DNA of 64,000 nt. Source: Dehalococcoidia bacterium. Its GTDB lineage: Bacteria > Chloroflexota > Dehalococcoidia > Lucifugimonadales > SHYT01. Position numbers and translations under genes: made by a program. The stretch is from positions 66,389 to 130,388 of the forward strand of contig SHYT01000003.1 in NCBI GenBank assembly GCA_009692665.1, in the 5' to 3' direction. This document shows positions 35,993 through 42,041 of the stretch, in pieces. The notes below the pieces were generated by a model that did no database searches, was not told where the DNA came from, and saw nothing but the letters and a program-made list of their open reading frames with translations. Numbering within the stretch: position 1 is the stretch's first letter; every line of letters starts with the position of its first letter.

Positions 35993-36115
35993 CGCGCAGG
36001 CGCGCGCCGACCTGCTGAAGAGACCCTGTTATTGAGAGAGATGAGTCTCCACAGTCAACAATTTATCGAAGGGAAGAGAGTCCAGAGGGTTGCAGTCCTC
36101 TGGCGTAGCAAACCG

Positions 36116-36628
36116 ATGGCCCAAGAAATACTCTATTGCTCAAACCACAAAGACATTGAAACGACGCTTCGCTGCGCGAAGTGCGATAAGCCCATCTGCG
36201 GCAAATGTGTCGTCTTCACCGACGTGGACACCCGGTGCCGTGAGTGTGCGCGGCTGCAGCGCATTCCCACCTATAATGTCAGCCCCATCTACCTCGTGCG
36301 CGGTCTGGTTGGCGGCCTTGCGATAGGTGTGGCCGCTGGCTTTACACTTGCGCTGCTGCTGACCGTCGGTCTGCCGGGCCAGCTTGGGCGCGTGGCGGGC
36401 ATCGTTGGGCCGCTCGCCATCATAGCCATTGGGTATACCGTTGGCGAGACCGTGACGCTGGTCACCAACAAGAAGCGAGGCCCGGCGCTTCAAGCTGTTG
36501 GTGTGGCAAGCCTGGTAGTCGGCTATCTGGTGCTTGAAGCGCTGACACCATGGCTCATAATCGGTAGCCTGTTCGGCATCATAGCGGCCATCGTCGCCAT
36601 TGCGATTGTTGTTGGGCGGCTTCAATAA
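36116..36628 (+). CDS. B-box-like Zn finger fused to membrane helices
   Basis: CSNH..ETTLRCAKCDKPICGKC....RCREC followed by 3-4 TM segments. Confidence 0.8.
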   Translation: MAQEILYCSNHKDIETTLRCAKCDKPICGKCVVFTDVDTRCRECARLQRIPTYNVSPIYLVRGLVGGLAIGVAAGFTLALLLTVGLPGQLGRVAGIVGPLAIIAIGYTVGETVTLVTNKKRGPALQAVGVASLVVGYLVLEALTPWLIIGSLFGIIAAIVAIAIVVGRLQ

Positions 36629-36780
36629 CCTGACCCCTGAGGCTGGTCCACTTTATCAAAAGCACTTCGTTTTGCATGGCGCGCCCCTCAATTTAGGTGG
36701 CGCTATACTGTTTTCGTATCACAGAATTAATCAAACTATAGTTTGCGCCCCAGAAATGGCCATATCAGGGAGGGACACGG

Positions 36781-37968
36781 ATGCCCATCTCCGCAAAAGT
36801 CCGCCAGGCCATGCAGTCGCAGTCCTGGATACGCCAGATGTTTGAGCTCGGCATTGCGCTGAAGAAGCAGTACGGCGATGAGAACGTCTATGACCTCTCG
36901 CTGGGCAACCCCATCCTGGAGCCGCCCGCAGCGTTCCAAGCCGAGTTGAAGAAGCTGGCAGAGCACCCCGGCAAAGGCACGCATCGCTACATGCCCAACG
37001 CGGGCTATTTGGAGACTCGCCAAGCGGTAGCCACGCACATTGCTACAGACACCAGCCTGTCCTTTACAGATGCCCACATAGTCATGACTGTTGGCGCAGG
37101 TGGCGCCATTAACGTGACGCTCAAGGCGTTGCTTGACCCTGGCGATGAAGTGCTGGTCCTTGCGCCATTCTTCCCGGAGTACATGGCGTACGCTGACAAC
37201 CATGGCGGCTTAGCGCGCATTGTGAAAACCGATGAGTCCTTCCAACCGGACCTGGAAGCACTGGAGAAGGCCATCACGCCGCGCACGAAAGCGCTTATCG
37301 TCAACTCGCCCAACAATCCCACCGGCGTCATCTACACAGATGAGAAGCTGCGGGGCTTGGGACAGGTGCTGGCTCGCGCCCAAACCCGTATCGGCCATCC
37401 CGTCTACATGATCAGCGACGAGCCGTACGCCAACCTCGTGTACGACAGCCAACCATTTCCACGTCCAGTGCACTACTACGAGACGAGTATCATAGCAACG
37501 TCCTACTCTAAAGACCTCTCCCTCGCTGGCGAGCGCATTGGCTATGTGGCAGTGCATCCCTCTTGCCCGGACGCACAAGAACTGGTGAATGCCTGCATTT
37601 ACACGAACCGTGTGCTCGGGTTTGTGAATGCACCAGCGCTCATGCAACATCTAGTCCGAGCGCTTCAGGACTCGCACGTGGACGTCGCCTGGTACCAGCG
37701 GCAGAGGGACACGGTCTACAACGCCTTGAAGAAAATGGGCTATACCTTAGCCAAGCCGCAGGGTGCCTTCTACGCTTTCCCGCGTTCGCCCATTCCGGAC
37801 GACGTTGCGTTTGTGCAAGAGCTTCTCAGGGAGCGTGTCATCGTTACGCCGGGTACGGGGTTTGGAGCGCCGGGATACTTCCGGATCTCCTATTCTGTAG
37901 AAGAGCGAGTGCTGAACGGCGCGTTAGAAGGTTTCGCGCGGGTGGCAAAGGCACATAAACTCGGCTAG
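36781..37968 (+). CDS. PLP-dependent class I/II aminotransferase (aspartate aminotransferase-like)
   Basis: NSPNNPTG, SDEPY, SYSKDLSLAGERIG. Confidence 0.93.
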   Translation: MPISAKVRQAMQSQSWIRQMFELGIALKKQYGDENVYDLSLGNPILEPPAAFQAELKKLAEHPGKGTHRYMPNAGYLETRQAVATHIATDTSLSFTDAHIVMTVGAGGAINVTLKALLDPGDEVLVLAPFFPEYMAYADNHGGLARIVKTDESFQPDLEALEKAITPRTKALIVNSPNNPTGVIYTDEKLRGLGQVLARAQTRIGHPVYMISDEPYANLVYDSQPFPRPVHYYETSIIATSYSKDLSLAGERIGYVAVHPSCPDAQELVNACIYTNRVLGFVNAPALMQHLVRALQDSHVDVAWYQRQRDTVYNALKKMGYTLAKPQGAFYAFPRSPIPDDVAFVQELLRERVIVTPGTGFGAPGYFRISYSVEERVLNGALEGFARVAKAHKLG

Positions 37969-38040
37969 CCGCACGCCACTGCATGTGGTCACAGTACATC
38001 CCCTCGACATCCACCAAGAGCGCGGCACGTGATTCTACGC

Positions 38041-38079
38041 AATAAAAAGGGCGCCTCCAATGGAAGCGCCCTTTTTATT
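38041..38079. terminator. Bidirectional intrinsic terminator
   Basis: AATAAAAAGGGCGC...GCGCCCTTTTTATT between convergent units. Confidence 0.85.
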
Positions 38080-38118
38080 GCTGTGGCTCCACCCCTTGAA
38101 GCGTGCCTAACCCGAAAG

Positions 38119-38172
38119 TTAAGCAATCCCCTCAAAGGAGGGAGCCAATGGTTGTGCTGGGTTGGTACGCAT
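38119..38172 (-). CDS. 17-aa small ORF (MRTNPAQPLAPSFEGIA) in a structured short transcript
   Basis: Perfect SD AAGGAGGTGA (38179-38188) 6 nt before ATG; own promoter and terminator. Confidence 0.6.
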   Translation of the reverse strand: MRTNPAQPLAPSFEGIA

Positions 38173-38200
38173 AGGCTCTCACCTCCTTCCATGTAAATTC

Positions 38201-38229
38201 AGTCTATCAAAGCAAAGTCTAGGGTGCAA
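38201..38229 (-). promoter_or_regulatory. Sigma70 promoter of the small transcript
   Basis: TTGCAC (38229-38224), 17-nt spacer ending TGA, TAGACT (38206-38201), i.e. an extended -10. Confidence 0.65.
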
Positions 38230-38258
38230 TGGCTGTCGAATAAATGTGCTGATTATTG

Positions 38259-38804
38259 CTACGTGGCTTGGTGTACGCTCACGCGACCATATGCCATCTC
38301 AATCTCGAGGTGAAGCTTGCTGCTGGCTGCGGCGTATTCAGGCGAAGTATGCATAGCGCGGCGAAGGACTCCGCTCATTTGACACCCAAGGACCCTGACT
38401 TCACCCACCGTCACCTCTGCGTCCACGCTGGCGACAACCTCGGCCGGGAGCCACACTTCTACCACCCCAACGACGCCATTCACGATGACGGAGTGCTCGC
38501 CTGGCACTGCTGTGGCTTGTCTGAAGTCCAGCACAATGGAGCCGAGACCGACCTGATAGACGCTATCGCTGATGGTTGTTGGGGCTGCGCGTATGGAGCC
38601 GAGTGTCTTGTCCTGAAAGACGGGTGGTGGGTTTCGGTGGTAGCGACGGAGCGTGCCGAGTATGAGGGGGAGCAGGAGCAGCACGCTGGCGCCCAGCGCG
38701 GCATCGCCGAGGCTGATGTCCACGACGCCTGTGCCGTTCAACAGCGCCACTGCCGCCACGATGACAAGCACCAGCAGCAGCACCTGCCGCCAAACGGCTC
38801 CCAT
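38259..38804 (-). CDS. LiaF-like (DUF2154) cell-envelope stress protein
   Basis: 2 TM segments, then beta-rich GLGSIVLDFRQA..VVGVVEVWLP..VTVGEV..MAYGRVSV. Confidence 0.75.
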   Translation of the reverse strand: MGAVWRQVLLLVLVIVAAVALLNGTGVVDISLGDAALGASVLLLLPLILGTLRRYHRNPPPVFQDKTLGSIRAAPTTISDSVYQVGLGSIVLDFRQATAVPGEHSVIVNGVVGVVEVWLPAEVVASVDAEVTVGEVRVLGCQMSGVLRRAMHTSPEYAAASSKLHLEIEMAYGRVSVHQAT

Positions 38805-38985: not shown

Positions 38986-41982
38986 TTACGAACGTCCGCT
39001 TGCGACCTTTTGTCGAGCTTTGCCGGCAGCTTTCTTTCCGTTGGTGCGGGCGCCATTATTGTGCACTTCCGGTACTGCGCCGTTTGTCTCGTTCGTTGGC
39101 GCATGGATTTTGGGCTTCCCGCCAATGAGCGATTGCAGGTACTCGCCGGTTATTGACTCAGGGGTGCGCGCCACATCTTCCGGCGTGCCCACGGCGATGA
39201 CGCGGCCGCCGCGCTCGCCCGCGCCGGGCCCAAGGTCTATGAGCCAGTCCGCGTTCTTGATCACGTCCAAGTGATGCTCGATAACGATGATGCTGTTGCC
39301 CGCGTCCACCAACCTGTGCATCACGCGCAGGAGCGCGGCCACGTCCTCAAAGGACAGTCCTGTGGTCGGCTCATCAAGGATGTAGAGCGTGCGGCCCGTG
39401 GCGCGTTTGGAAAGCTCCGTGGAGAGTTTGATGCGCTGCGCCTCGCCGCCGGACAGCGTGGTGGCTGGCTGGCCCAGGCGCATGTAGCCAAGGCCCACTT
39501 GCTGCATGGTCTCCAGCTTGTTGCGGATGGATGGAATGTTCTTGAACAGTTCCGCCGCTTCATCCACGTTGGAGTTCAGGATGTCCGTGATGGACTTGTC
39601 GTGGAACTTTACTTCCAGCGCTTCGCGGTCGTAGCGGGCGCCCTTGCAGACTTCGCAGGGGACCGTGACGTCCGGAAGGAACTGCATTTCGATCTGGATG
39701 TAGCCGTCGCCCTGGCAGGCTTCGCAGCGGCCGCCCTTTACGTTGAAGGAGAAGCGGCCCGGCTGATAGCCGCGCGCCTTTGCTTCAGGCAGTGAAGCGA
39801 AGAGCTCGCGCATGGGCGTGAACGCGCCCACGTATGTTGCCGGGTTGCTGCGCGGCGTCCGGCCAATGGGCGACTGGTCAATGTTGATGACCTTGTCTAT
39901 GTTCTCGATGCCGGTGATGGAATCGTGCTCACCCGGCTTGTCCTTGGCCCGGTACAGGATCTGCGCCAGTCGCTTGTAGAGCACGTCGTAGACAAGCGTG
40001 CTCTTGCCGGAGCCCGAGACGCCCGTAATGCAGACCATCTTGCCTAACGGGAAGTCCACGGTCACGTTTTTAAGGTTGTTTTCGCGCGCGCCCTTGAGCA
40101 CCACGGACTTGCCGCTGCCGGCCCGTCGTGTCTTGGGGACAGCAATCTGCTTCCTGCCGGACAGGTACGCGCCGGTCAGGGAGTTGGGATTGTCCATGAC
40201 TTCTTGCAGCGTGCCCGTGGCCACCACGTAGCCGCCGTGCTCGCCCGCGCCGGGGCCCATGTCCACGATGAAGTCCGCCGCGCGCATGACCGCCTCGTCA
40301 TGCTCCACCAGCAGGACCGTGTTGCCCAGGTCGCGCAGGCGCTTGAGGGTTTCCACCAGCCGGTAATCGTCTGCGGGGTGCAAGCCGATGGTTGGCTCGT
40401 CGCAGACGTACAGGACGCCCATGAGGCCTGAGCCGATTTGCGTCGCCAGACGGATGCGCTGCGCCTCACCGCCGGAGAGGGTCGCGGCCATGCGCTCTAC
40501 GGTAAGGTATTCCAGGCCAATGTCGGCCAAGAATTTTAGGCGCGCATAAATCTCTTTTAGGATTTGCTTCGCGATGAGCAGGTCACGCTCAGAGAGCGCG
40601 GTCTCGTCCGCCACGCGCTCCGGCGACGTCTTCTGGATGTCGTTCACCCATGCCAGCGCCTTCTCCACGCTGAGCGCGGATACCTGCATGATGTTCTTCC
40701 CGCAGACAGTGACCGCGAGCGCTTCGGGCTTCAGCCGCTTGCCCGTGCACTTCGTGCAGGGCCGCTGGGCCATGTACCGCTCGATTTCCGCCTTAACGAA
40801 ATCGGATTCGGTCTCCTTGTAACGGCGCATGAGGTTGGGGATAACGCCCTCAAACGTGGTCTCCCACGAGTACGTGTGCCCCCGGTGCGTGCGGTGGCGC
40901 ATGGTGAACGAGTTCTCTCGGTCGCCGTAGAGGATGAGGTCGAGGGTGTCCGGCATCAGGTTGCGCACCGACGTCTTCGTTGAGAAGCCGTGCTTCTTGG
41001 CCAAAGACTCCAGCAAGCTGGTGTACCAGACGCTGGACGAGCCTGAGCGCACCCACGGTTGGATGGCCCCCTCTGCCAATGAAAGATCCCGGTTGGGGAT
41101 GACCATGTCCGGGTCAACCTCCAATTTGAACCCCAGGCCGGTGCACTCCGGGCACGCGCCGTGCGGGTTGTTGAAGCTGAACGACCTCGGCTCCAGCTCG
41201 CCGAGGCTGACGCCGTCGTAGGGGCAGGCGAACTGCTGCGAGAAGACCATCTCTTGCTCTGGCGCGCTCAGCACAGAAACGCCTACCACGCCCTCGGCAA
41301 GCTTGATGGCGGTGTCGACCGAGTTGGCGACGCGCGACTGCTCCAGTGATGCGTTGGCGACCAGGCGGTCAATGACGATCTCCACCGTGTGGCGCTTGTT
41401 CTTGTCGAGCGTGATCGTCTCGGACAGCTCGTGCATCTTCTTGTCCACGCGGGCGCGGACGAAGCCTTTCTTGCGCGCGTCTTCCAGCACGTCCTTGTAC
41501 TCGCCCTTGCGGTCACGCACGGCGGGGGCCAGCACTATGAAGCGCGTGCCCTGCGGCAGCGCCATGATGGAGTCCACGATTTGCTGGGTGGTCTGCTTCT
41601 GCACGGGCCGCCCGCACTGCGGACAGTGCGGCTTGCCTGCGCGGGCGTACAGCAGGCGCAGGTGGTCGTACACCTCCGTGATGGTGCCGACGGTGGAACG
41701 CGGGTTATGTGACGCGCCCTTCTGGTCGATGGAGATGGCGGGAGAAAGCCCCTCGATGTAGTCCACATCGGGCTTTTCCATGCGGCCCAGGAACTGGCGG
41801 GCGTACGCGGACAACGACTCGACGTAGCGGCGCTGGCCTTCGGCGTAGATGGTGTCGAAGGCCAGGGAGCTTTTGCCTGAGCCAGAGACGCCGGTGATGA
41901 CCACCAGCTTGTTGCGGGGGATGGTGACGTCAATGCCCTTGAGGTTGTGCTCTCGGGCGCCTTTAACAACGATGTTTTCCAG
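38986..41982 (-). CDS. uvrA: Excinuclease ABC subunit A (probable CTG start)
   Basis: GAREHNLK, two GVSGSGKS Walker A motifs, two LSGGEAQR, Zn fingers; SD AGAAGGAG 7 nt before CTG 41982. Confidence 0.96.
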
Positions 41983-42026
41983 GAGAGTGCTCCTTCTACG
42001 TGTGGGGAATTGGGATAAAAGCCGCA

Positions 42027-42041
42027 AGAACTATTGTACCA
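42027..42041 (-). promoter_or_regulatory. Gram-positive-type LexA (SOS) box overlapping the extended -10 of uvrA
   Basis: GAAC-tatt-GTAC 42028-42039 overlapping TGgTACAAT on the minus strand. Confidence 0.65.

Follow-up and report, generated by a model that had tools for sequence, protein, structure and literature searches.

The element described here is a unit of about 150 nt within positions 38229-38041 on the minus strand of a 64,000-nucleotide stretch of contig SHYT01000003.1, from the genome of a Dehalococcoidia bacterium; this whole stretch is referred to below as the window. The unit consists of a promoter, a 10-nt Shine-Dalgarno (SD) sequence, an ATG, 17 codons, a 64-nt hairpin and a terminator, and direct reading of the sequence places every one of these elements on the minus strand where an initial annotation, made from the letters of the sequence alone, had put it. 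The same annotation regarded the unit as self-contained, and the promoter-to-terminator layout indeed recurs across the 29 distinct sequences of the family that is delineated below. The unit is located between a convergent class I/II aminotransferase gene on the plus strand (36781..37968; Pfam, 4.6e-54; NCBIfam NF005305/PRK06836, 553 bits), with which it shares the terminator region, and, upstream and on the same strand as the unit, a LiaF_C-like gene (38259..38804; PF09922, 4.4e-16) and uvrA (38986-42027). No co-directional gene is found downstream of the unit in the window, the next gene being the aminotransferase, and the terminator lies 77 nt beyond the stop codon of the latter. Reading of the sequence between the stop codon of the LiaF-like gene (38259) and the promoter of the unit revealed no terminator. 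The LiaF-like neighbour is not conserved in relatives.

The putative promoter is made of a -35-like hexamer, TTGCAC (38224..38229), which is identical to TTGACA at three of six positions, and, after a 17-nt spacer, of an extended -10 element, TG-a-TAGACT (38201..38209). A consensus promoter/terminator scanner called neither this promoter nor the terminator of the unit; the T run of the terminator is inside the stem. The promoter was accepted because its position is conserved in relatives (see below), and not because of its match to the consensus. Transcription would start near 38194 (+/-3). The SD block, GGAAGGAGGTGAGAGCC (38174..38190), includes AAGGAGGTGA (38188-38179), which is complementary to the 3' tail of 16S rRNA, and also the pentamer GAGCC, which is complementary to the GGCTC of the hairpin arm. 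The open reading frame (ORF), MRTNPAQPLAPSFEGIA (38119..38172), extends from the ATG at 38172-38170 to the TAA at 38121-38119, and within its codons 9-14 lies the anti-SD arm TGGCTCCCTCCTTTGA (38132..38147; UGGCUCCCUCCUUUGA in the RNA), which is the 5' arm of a long hairpin, P1 (38084..38147; -37.1 kcal/mol by folding). The stop codon, near the apex of P1, was initially described as lying inside the apical helix; it does so, more precisely on the 5' side of that helix, with 3-6 nt between it and the loop.

The terminator, an 18-bp stem formed by AATAAAAAGGGCGCTTCC and GGAGGCGCCCTTTTTATT (38041..38079) and seen in the RNAfold structure, combines an A run with a T run, one per side, and so reads as a terminator on both strands; it also matches itself on the plus strand. 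When the segment 38200-38041 is folded with RNAfold, the result is exactly the hairpin and the terminator, at -73.2 kcal/mol (z = -5.98; none of 200 shuffles as good).

Relatives of the unit

The unit is single-copy in its own 1.58-Mb genome, which it matches elsewhere solely through its palindromic terminator, read on the opposite strand; a repeat or mobile element was rejected on this ground. BLASTN detected matches in three of 41 related genomes, the window's own included, and a genome of the same family contains a 17-codon homologue, MRKISDQPWAPSLEVKA. The exact 17-mer GGAGGTGAGAGCCTATG occurs at 63 loci in 185,579 species genomes, which is about the number that we estimate to be expected by chance; 15 of these loci are in Dehalococcoidia/Chloroflexota assemblies, and the layout is identical in all 15. 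A covariance model built from family sequences matched 10 of the 151 genomes of the order (again including the window's), and all these matches look genuine. In a sample of 151 genomes of the class, the sole match of the model besides the window's genome was outside the order and a false positive: it is an ordinary 4Fe-4S protein gene preceded by a comparable SD. This gene (L155, on G191:C22, from another order of the class) starts behind GGAAAGGAGGTGAGACTCTATG, in an SD context that resembles the block of the unit. Of the 35 genomic loci returned by scans with a degenerate pattern, 19 belong to the family, as do 14 of the 35 loci on metagenome contigs. Since the patterns were written to demand GGAGGTGAGAG, and at a later stage GGCTC as well, the invariance of these motifs is partly ascertainment.

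The family, as it emerged from these searches, consists of 29 distinct sequences, each of which either is labelled as Dehalococcoidia/Chloroflexota or comes from a metagenome contig. As judged from the sequences, the architecture of the unit is that of a conserved family and not a product of chance. The opposite strand has no ORF that is consistent across the family. A second 17-codon ORF, found behind AGGAGGTGA on contig C11, has neither terminator nor hairpin and is unrelated.

The initial annotation would have given up its claim of novelty on a match to a known RNA family, and the claim of a gene on a lack of both homologues and a discrete transcript. The whole window had no matches in Rfam 15 at the gathering thresholds, and there are 29 distinct homologues. 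In a permissive Rfam scan of 37950-38300, the best scores were 26.2 bits for RmaA (cut-off 57) and 19.7 bits for CC2171 (cut-off 75), with all matches centred on the terminator. No such element was found among the titles and abstract openings returned by a full-text literature search. As far as these searches show, the family has not been described before; its distribution is narrow, with conservation in one order of the Dehalococcoidia.

Conservation of the promoter, the reading frame and the alternative pairings

Of the 29 sequences, 26 have a TTGnnn element, a spacer of 16-18 nt and a -10-like hexamer, positioned at a fixed distance from the SD, and 24 of these 26 have the TG extension of the -10; in most relatives the -10 element ends 13-15 nt before GGAGG. 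Together with the terminator, the conserved position of the promoter predicts a discrete transcript. The block GGAGGUGAGAG / GGAGGTGAGAG is invariant in all 29 sequences, with the ascertainment mentioned above; the SD consensus is G(A/G)AAGGAGGUGAGAG(C/U)(C/U)nAUG, and its core is identical in the covariance-model matches. The sole 16S rRNA gene of the window's assembly (G000 contig C4:58-923, model positions 9-902) is broken at a contig end, and for this reason the 16S 3' tail was taken from three relatives, in which it reads GGATCACCTCCTTT (GGAUCACCUCCUUU in RNA). The SD pairs with 10 nt of this tail in the window and with 12-13 nt in most relatives. The 1.58-Mb genome contains AGGAGGTGA 13 times and AAGGAGGTGA five times, and only the unit's copy of AAGGAGGTGA has a start codon at normal spacing, which bears out the perfect SD of the initial annotation.

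All 29 sequences have a frame that starts with AUG and is 17-22 codons long, and GGCUC (AGCUC in two of them) begins 26 or 29 nt after the A of the AUG. In 22 of the 29, GGCUC is the start of a long hairpin, into which the ORF runs and at the apex of which it stops; a strong terminator follows the hairpin across the family. At its apex, the hairpin shows no sequence relationship from one subclade to another. Its base is conserved: of the cells in the 13 pairs of the basal stem, aligned for 20 sequences, 86.1% are paired (none of 500 shuffles equals this value, and slid controls give 41-57%), and five of the 13 pairs change on both sides, i.e., in a compensatory manner. The stop codon begins 25 nt after GGCUC in 19 of the 22 hairpins and is located in the apical loop or at most 6 nt from it; this position is kept whether it falls in the stem or in the loop, despite the differing apical sequences. 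The ORF with a stop codon at the hairpin apex, noticed initially in the window, is thus a property of the family, in which the ORF, its length and the position of the stop are conserved.

The comparison of L139 (L139/L148) with L092 is of interest in this regard. A 1-nt deletion in the apical stem shifts the frame, which is extended from 17 to 19 codons and closed by a new in-frame stop codon in the loop, and the stem is preserved by compensatory changes despite the frameshift. From the invariant AUG at normal spacing, the pairing of the SD with 16S rRNA, the kept stop codon and the new stop codon after the frameshift in L139, we infer that the mini-ORF is translated.

The 5' arm of the hairpin has two complementary partners, the 3' arm and the SD block of the unit itself. 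GAGCC can pair with GGCUC, and AAGGAGG with CCUCCUU, in the window's unit, at -21.0 kcal/mol, a value equalled by three of 500 shuffles. Complementarity between the SD and the arm is found in all 29 sequences, at -10.6 to -22.2 kcal/mol, and the GAGCC:GGCTC helix was also proposed by RNAalifold unprompted. This complementarity is thus second in conservation to the SD alone. When the SD:arm helix is enforced, the energy differs from that of the SD-free fold by -9.5 to +6.5 kcal/mol, and is equal or better in 24 of the 29 sequences. The closeness in energy of the SD-closed and SD-open folds predicts a two-state translational switch; the initial suggestion that a CTCCTT in the stem might pair with the SD is therefore strengthened, in that the complementarity is present in all family members and the folds are energetically balanced. 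In the models, then, the RNA has both an internal SD complement and a competing alternative fold, as would be expected of an SD-masking switch.

The convergent aminotransferase and transcription termination

A feature that the initial annotation had missed is the conserved tail-to-tail link of the unit to one aminotransferase gene. Orthologues of the window's aminotransferase, which are 57-74% identical (the five that were scanned match NCBIfam NF005305/PRK06836 at 520-553 bits), face the unit in 16 of the 22 genomic loci; in two of these 16, a distance of 0.8-1.4 kb separates the unit from the gene, and of the six genomic loci without the aminotransferase, one is interrupted by a contig end. 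On metagenome contigs the aminotransferase is tail to tail with the unit in nine of 14 loci, with two interrupted by contig ends. In the largest subclade, the stop codon of the aminotransferase is about 5-15 nt from the common hairpin, as estimated from coordinates. The genes upstream of the unit vary by clade, and include LiaF-like, Vut_1, beta-lactamase, MFS_3, lactate permease and hydrolase genes. A bidirectional terminator held in common may be enough to freeze the arrangement of the unit and the aminotransferase; a cis-antisense relation between the two is possible, and we found no support for it.

Several other observations concern this neighbourhood. Genome G001 has two copies of the unit (L084 and L107), one of which faces a PRK06836-type aminotransferase and the other a class-III, HemL-like one, so that both copies face genes of pyridoxal phosphate (PLP)-dependent aminotransferases. 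A block, GATGCTA(G/T)CAGAGG(G/T)(A/G)GC, is conserved just before the aminotransferase start in L080, L091-L094, L097, L103, L113 and L114, and is located at 36750-36781 in the window. Its TGCTAGC core resembles the extended -10 region of the unit (TGTGCTAGCGT), and the two may represent a common promoter type or regulator site. Between plsY and the aminotransferase, the window has a 198-residue ORF on the plus strand (36032-36628) with a sub-threshold match to the B-box zinc finger (22.8 bits; cut-off 24.1).

Base-pairing targets of the RNA were sought as well. In the unit's own genome, the 5' block has no complement of 11 nt or longer besides its own antisense and the reverse strands of two SD-like sites. 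The arm can pair with the start region of the window's aminotransferase at -18.8 kcal/mol, which ranks 95 of 3685 in the genome, largely because this start region has a strong SD. Targeting of the aminotransferase start by the arm alone was not borne out, as cognate pairs score -16.0 and all pairs -15.7 (permutation p = 0.26); nor was targeting by the whole RNA, which gave meaningless duplexes with long bulges, at a mean of -44.2 for cognate and -43.7 for non-cognate pairs.

In the window's unit a short ORF, predicted to be translated, is found just upstream of an intrinsic terminator, and attenuation was considered for this reason. When the RNA was masked as it would be by a stalled or terminating ribosome, the terminator stayed intact in every sequence in which it was in view (15 of the 16 tested), and forbidding the 5' arm of the terminator costs 19.3 kcal/mol in the window and 10.9-30 kcal/mol in the window's clade. 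Neither the ribosome-mask folds nor the forbidden-terminator folds of the window's unit contained an antiterminator pairing that competes with the terminator. The family peptides have no run of one amino-acid codon in common, Ser-rich N-termini being limited to some subclades. A constitutive terminator in the window's clade means that there is no attenuator there, and we reject one for this clade, given that the terminator survives both ribosome masks and, in the window, no gene is downstream on the same strand.

The initial annotation had argued that the unit, with no downstream gene to regulate, is not an attenuator. This holds for the window's clade but not for its sister, the MK clade, which had escaped notice. 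The MK clade comprises five distinct sequences (L048/L101, L075/L102, L119, L128/L143 and L144), with peptides of the form MK..L..GEA(P/L)…, and is distinguished by an ORF segment, GGGAGAGGCTCCGG (GGGAGAGGCUCCGG in RNA), that repeats the 5' arm of the terminator almost exactly. This segment pairs with the 3' arm of the terminator in all five sequences, and does so in the minimum free energy (MFE) fold of three. A co-directional ORF is the first confirmed gene beyond the unit in four of the five; these downstream genes are mutually unrelated, and code for an alpha/beta hydrolase (twice), a thiamine pyrophosphate (TPP) enzyme and an MtnA-like protein. Going by these pairings and neighbours, the MK clade looks like a working attenuator, or like a promoter-leader cassette that was moved between genes.

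A proposed self-masking mini-ORF RNA and its alternatives

We tentatively favour, with slightly less than even confidence, the reading that the unit is a translated, self-masking regulatory mini-ORF RNA, in which the frame and the fold outweigh the peptide. An RNA of about 150 nt would be transcribed independently, carry the translated 17-codon mini-ORF and act as a two-state self-masking switch. The 5' arm of its hairpin, composed of GGCUC and a CU-rich stretch that resembles the 16S 3' tail, would, from within the ORF, choose between two alternative partners: on the 3' arm, it would leave the SD open, and on the unit's own SD block, it would close it. The complementarity of the SD to the 16S tail extends over 10-13 nt, so that the 30S subunit could, we propose, outcompete this internal competitor. 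The initiating ribosome would melt the 5' arm and stop at the apex of the hairpin, and transcription would end at the constitutive bidirectional terminator common to the unit and the convergent aminotransferase gene. The proposal builds on the anatomy of the unit, its conservation, the two pairings and the energetic balance between them; beyond these, it takes the RNA to be made and translated, and the act of translation or the conformation of the RNA, and not the peptide, to be what probably matters.

Several points weigh against this reading. Both the transcription and the translation of the unit are deduced from sequence features. Many of the 29 sequences are close kin, and the counts given above overstate the independent support accordingly. 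For the window's unit, the enforced closed fold falls short of the SD-open fold by 3.3 kcal/mol and of the overall MFE by 8.2 kcal/mol; the closed state may, by these models, be rare there. The SD block and GGCTC are invariant, and therefore no compensatory change proves the SD:arm helix. The switch is assigned no trigger and no output, and its regulatory role is a proposal. Finally, the Ala-Pro-Ser(-x-Glu) motif, with its synonymous variation, could mean that the peptide itself is functional.

This last point is central to the view, in our opinion a doubtful one, that the unit is a micro-protein gene, the product of which is a 17-residue peptide with a variable N-terminus and Ala-Pro-Ser-x-Glu, with the RNA structures serving to stabilise the mRNA and to tune its translation. 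The AUG, the length of the frame and the position of the stop are conserved, as they should be in such a gene, and within the Ala-Pro-Ser stretch variation is seen at third codon positions only: Pro is encoded by CCA, CCC, CCT and CCG, and Ser by TCT, TCC and TCA, with the first and second positions fixed. In the window's clade, most sequences have Glu two residues further on; codons 2-9 of L029 and L033 differ by three synonymous changes and zero replacements; and pN/pS in the window's clade is below 1, at 0.72 for codons 2-9 and 0.63 for codons 10-17. However, pN/pS is 0.83-1.0 in the MK clade and reaches 1.2-1.3 in codons 10-17 of two close subclades, the N-termini are almost completely different between clades, and divergent members entirely lack the motif (EAPVGRD, ALPPQGD, AHSSER). 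The frameshift between L139 and L092 altered the C-terminus of the peptide, while the RNA stem was preserved. The variable third positions of the Ala-Pro-Ser stretch are, moreover, stem positions with covarying partners, so that RNA pairing explains the pattern equally well and the pattern cannot separate constraint on the peptide from constraint on the RNA. The peptide sequence is weakly constrained (pN/pS of 0.6-1.0), which fits a frame that matters more than its product, and makes the "small-protein gene" of the initial annotation doubtful.

Less probable again is a non-coding small RNA with an incidental ORF, the 5' GGAAAGGAGGUGA block of which would bind some CU-rich target or else the 3' tail of 16S rRNA, so as to titrate or sense 30S subunits; the latter is the "ribosome sponge" that the initial annotation had named, beside a hibernation RNA, as an example. 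The weak constraint on the peptide agrees with this view, as does a 5' block conserved beyond the needs of an SD and complementary to 10-13 nt of the 16S tail; and since the RNA carries a mimic of that tail, its binding of 30S subunits would be conditional. It is hard to explain, however, why an untranslated RNA should keep its AUG without exception, at normal spacing, and also a stop codon at the apex of hairpins whose apical parts are unrelated. Such ribosome sponges are not known, although none of the literature searches was aimed at them; there is no other genomic site of at least 11 nt complementary to the 5' block, and the similar SD before an ordinary 4Fe-4S protein gene of the class indicates that the block may be just an optimal SD. 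We regard as distinctly improbable a ribosome-mediated attenuator in which, in the window's clade, read-through would run antisense into the convergent aminotransferase and lower its expression. The order of parts, an ORF that reaches across the 5' arm and stops close to the hairpin top, then a terminator, is like that of a trp leader; the MK clade has its terminator-pairing segment and co-directional genes; and the aminotransferase faces the unit across varying upstream genes, with a class-III aminotransferase facing the second G001 copy. All this is countered by a terminator that withstands any upstream mask and is costly to forbid, by the lack of a common codon run, by the unrelatedness of the genes downstream in the MK clade and by the 0.8-1.4 kb found in two loci between the unit and the aminotransferase, and a bidirectional terminator in common could alone preserve the adjacency. 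Hardly credible, in our view, is a module with no function of its own, which would do no more than supply a 3' untranslated end and a terminator to its neighbours (on one strand the operon of uvrA and the LiaF-like gene, on the other the aminotransferase) and have its features by chance. The continuity from the LiaF-like stop codon into the unit, where no terminator was seen, and a bidirectional terminator so placed beyond the aminotransferase would suit such a module, but not the preservation of promoter, SD, AUG, frame and hairpin beside aminotransferases of 57-74% identity and differing upstream genes, nor the fold z-score and the covariation in the stem.

The unit has parts in common with several known systems. 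Attenuator leader peptides, such as trpL, hisL, pheL and the 17-codon mgtL, likewise are encoded by a short ORF that has its own SD and extends over the 5' arm of a hairpin, with a stop codon near the top and an intrinsic terminator after it, and likewise are poorly conserved as peptides while the frame is kept. The unit differs from them in having its own putative promoter and, as predicted, a closed transcript, and, in the window, in having no co-directional gene, no competing antiterminator and no regulatory codon run. Dual-function small RNAs with a tiny ORF, e.g., SgrS/SgrT, SR1/SR1P, Spot 42/SpfP and RNAIII/hld, resemble the unit, with its putative promoter, as discrete intergenic entities of about 150 nt from promoter to terminator, with a very short ORF and extensive structure. 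Unlike them, the unit has a weakly constrained peptide and yielded no base-pairing target in the searches of the genome with the 5' block and of start regions with the arm, and its sole conserved single-stranded stretch is the SD itself. In mRNAs that mask the SD by refolding, such as RNA thermometers and the type I toxin mRNAs hok or tisB, there is also an internal CU-rich complement of the SD, and two exclusive folds set access to the SD; in the unit, in contrast, the anti-SD is inside the ORF and doubles as an arm of the long hairpin. A type I toxin mRNA proper was rejected, because such mRNAs code for small, hydrophobic, membrane-active peptides, whereas the family peptides are polar, with many Ser, Pro, Ala and Glu residues; nor is there an evident antisense RNA gene at the unit.

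The self-masking reading can be extended to the idea, which we consider quite unlikely, that the RNA is a sensor of free 30S subunits, or of translational capacity, with the mimic of the 16S tail competing with the 30S subunit for the near-perfect SD. The availability of ribosomes would be reported by the proportion of RNA molecules that are open and translated and not closed, the closed ones exposing their purine-rich 3' arm; this state would be passed on, for example, to the aminotransferase gene, which in most loci has its terminator in common with the unit, or to other targets of the exposed arm.

The narrow distribution of the family and its unassigned function limit the immediate reach of these findings. 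If the unit is a self-masking mini-ORF RNA, it would represent an undescribed RNA/small-ORF family from an uncultured freshwater and marine lineage, in which parts of leader peptides, dual-function small RNAs and SD-masking mRNAs are combined in a closed unit that regulates no downstream gene. It would also be a compact natural case in which an SD has, within its own RNA, a competitor that imitates the anti-SD of the ribosome. The adjacency to the aminotransferase and the attenuator-like sister clade suggest an evolutionary route from an attenuator to a free-standing RNA gene, or the reverse.

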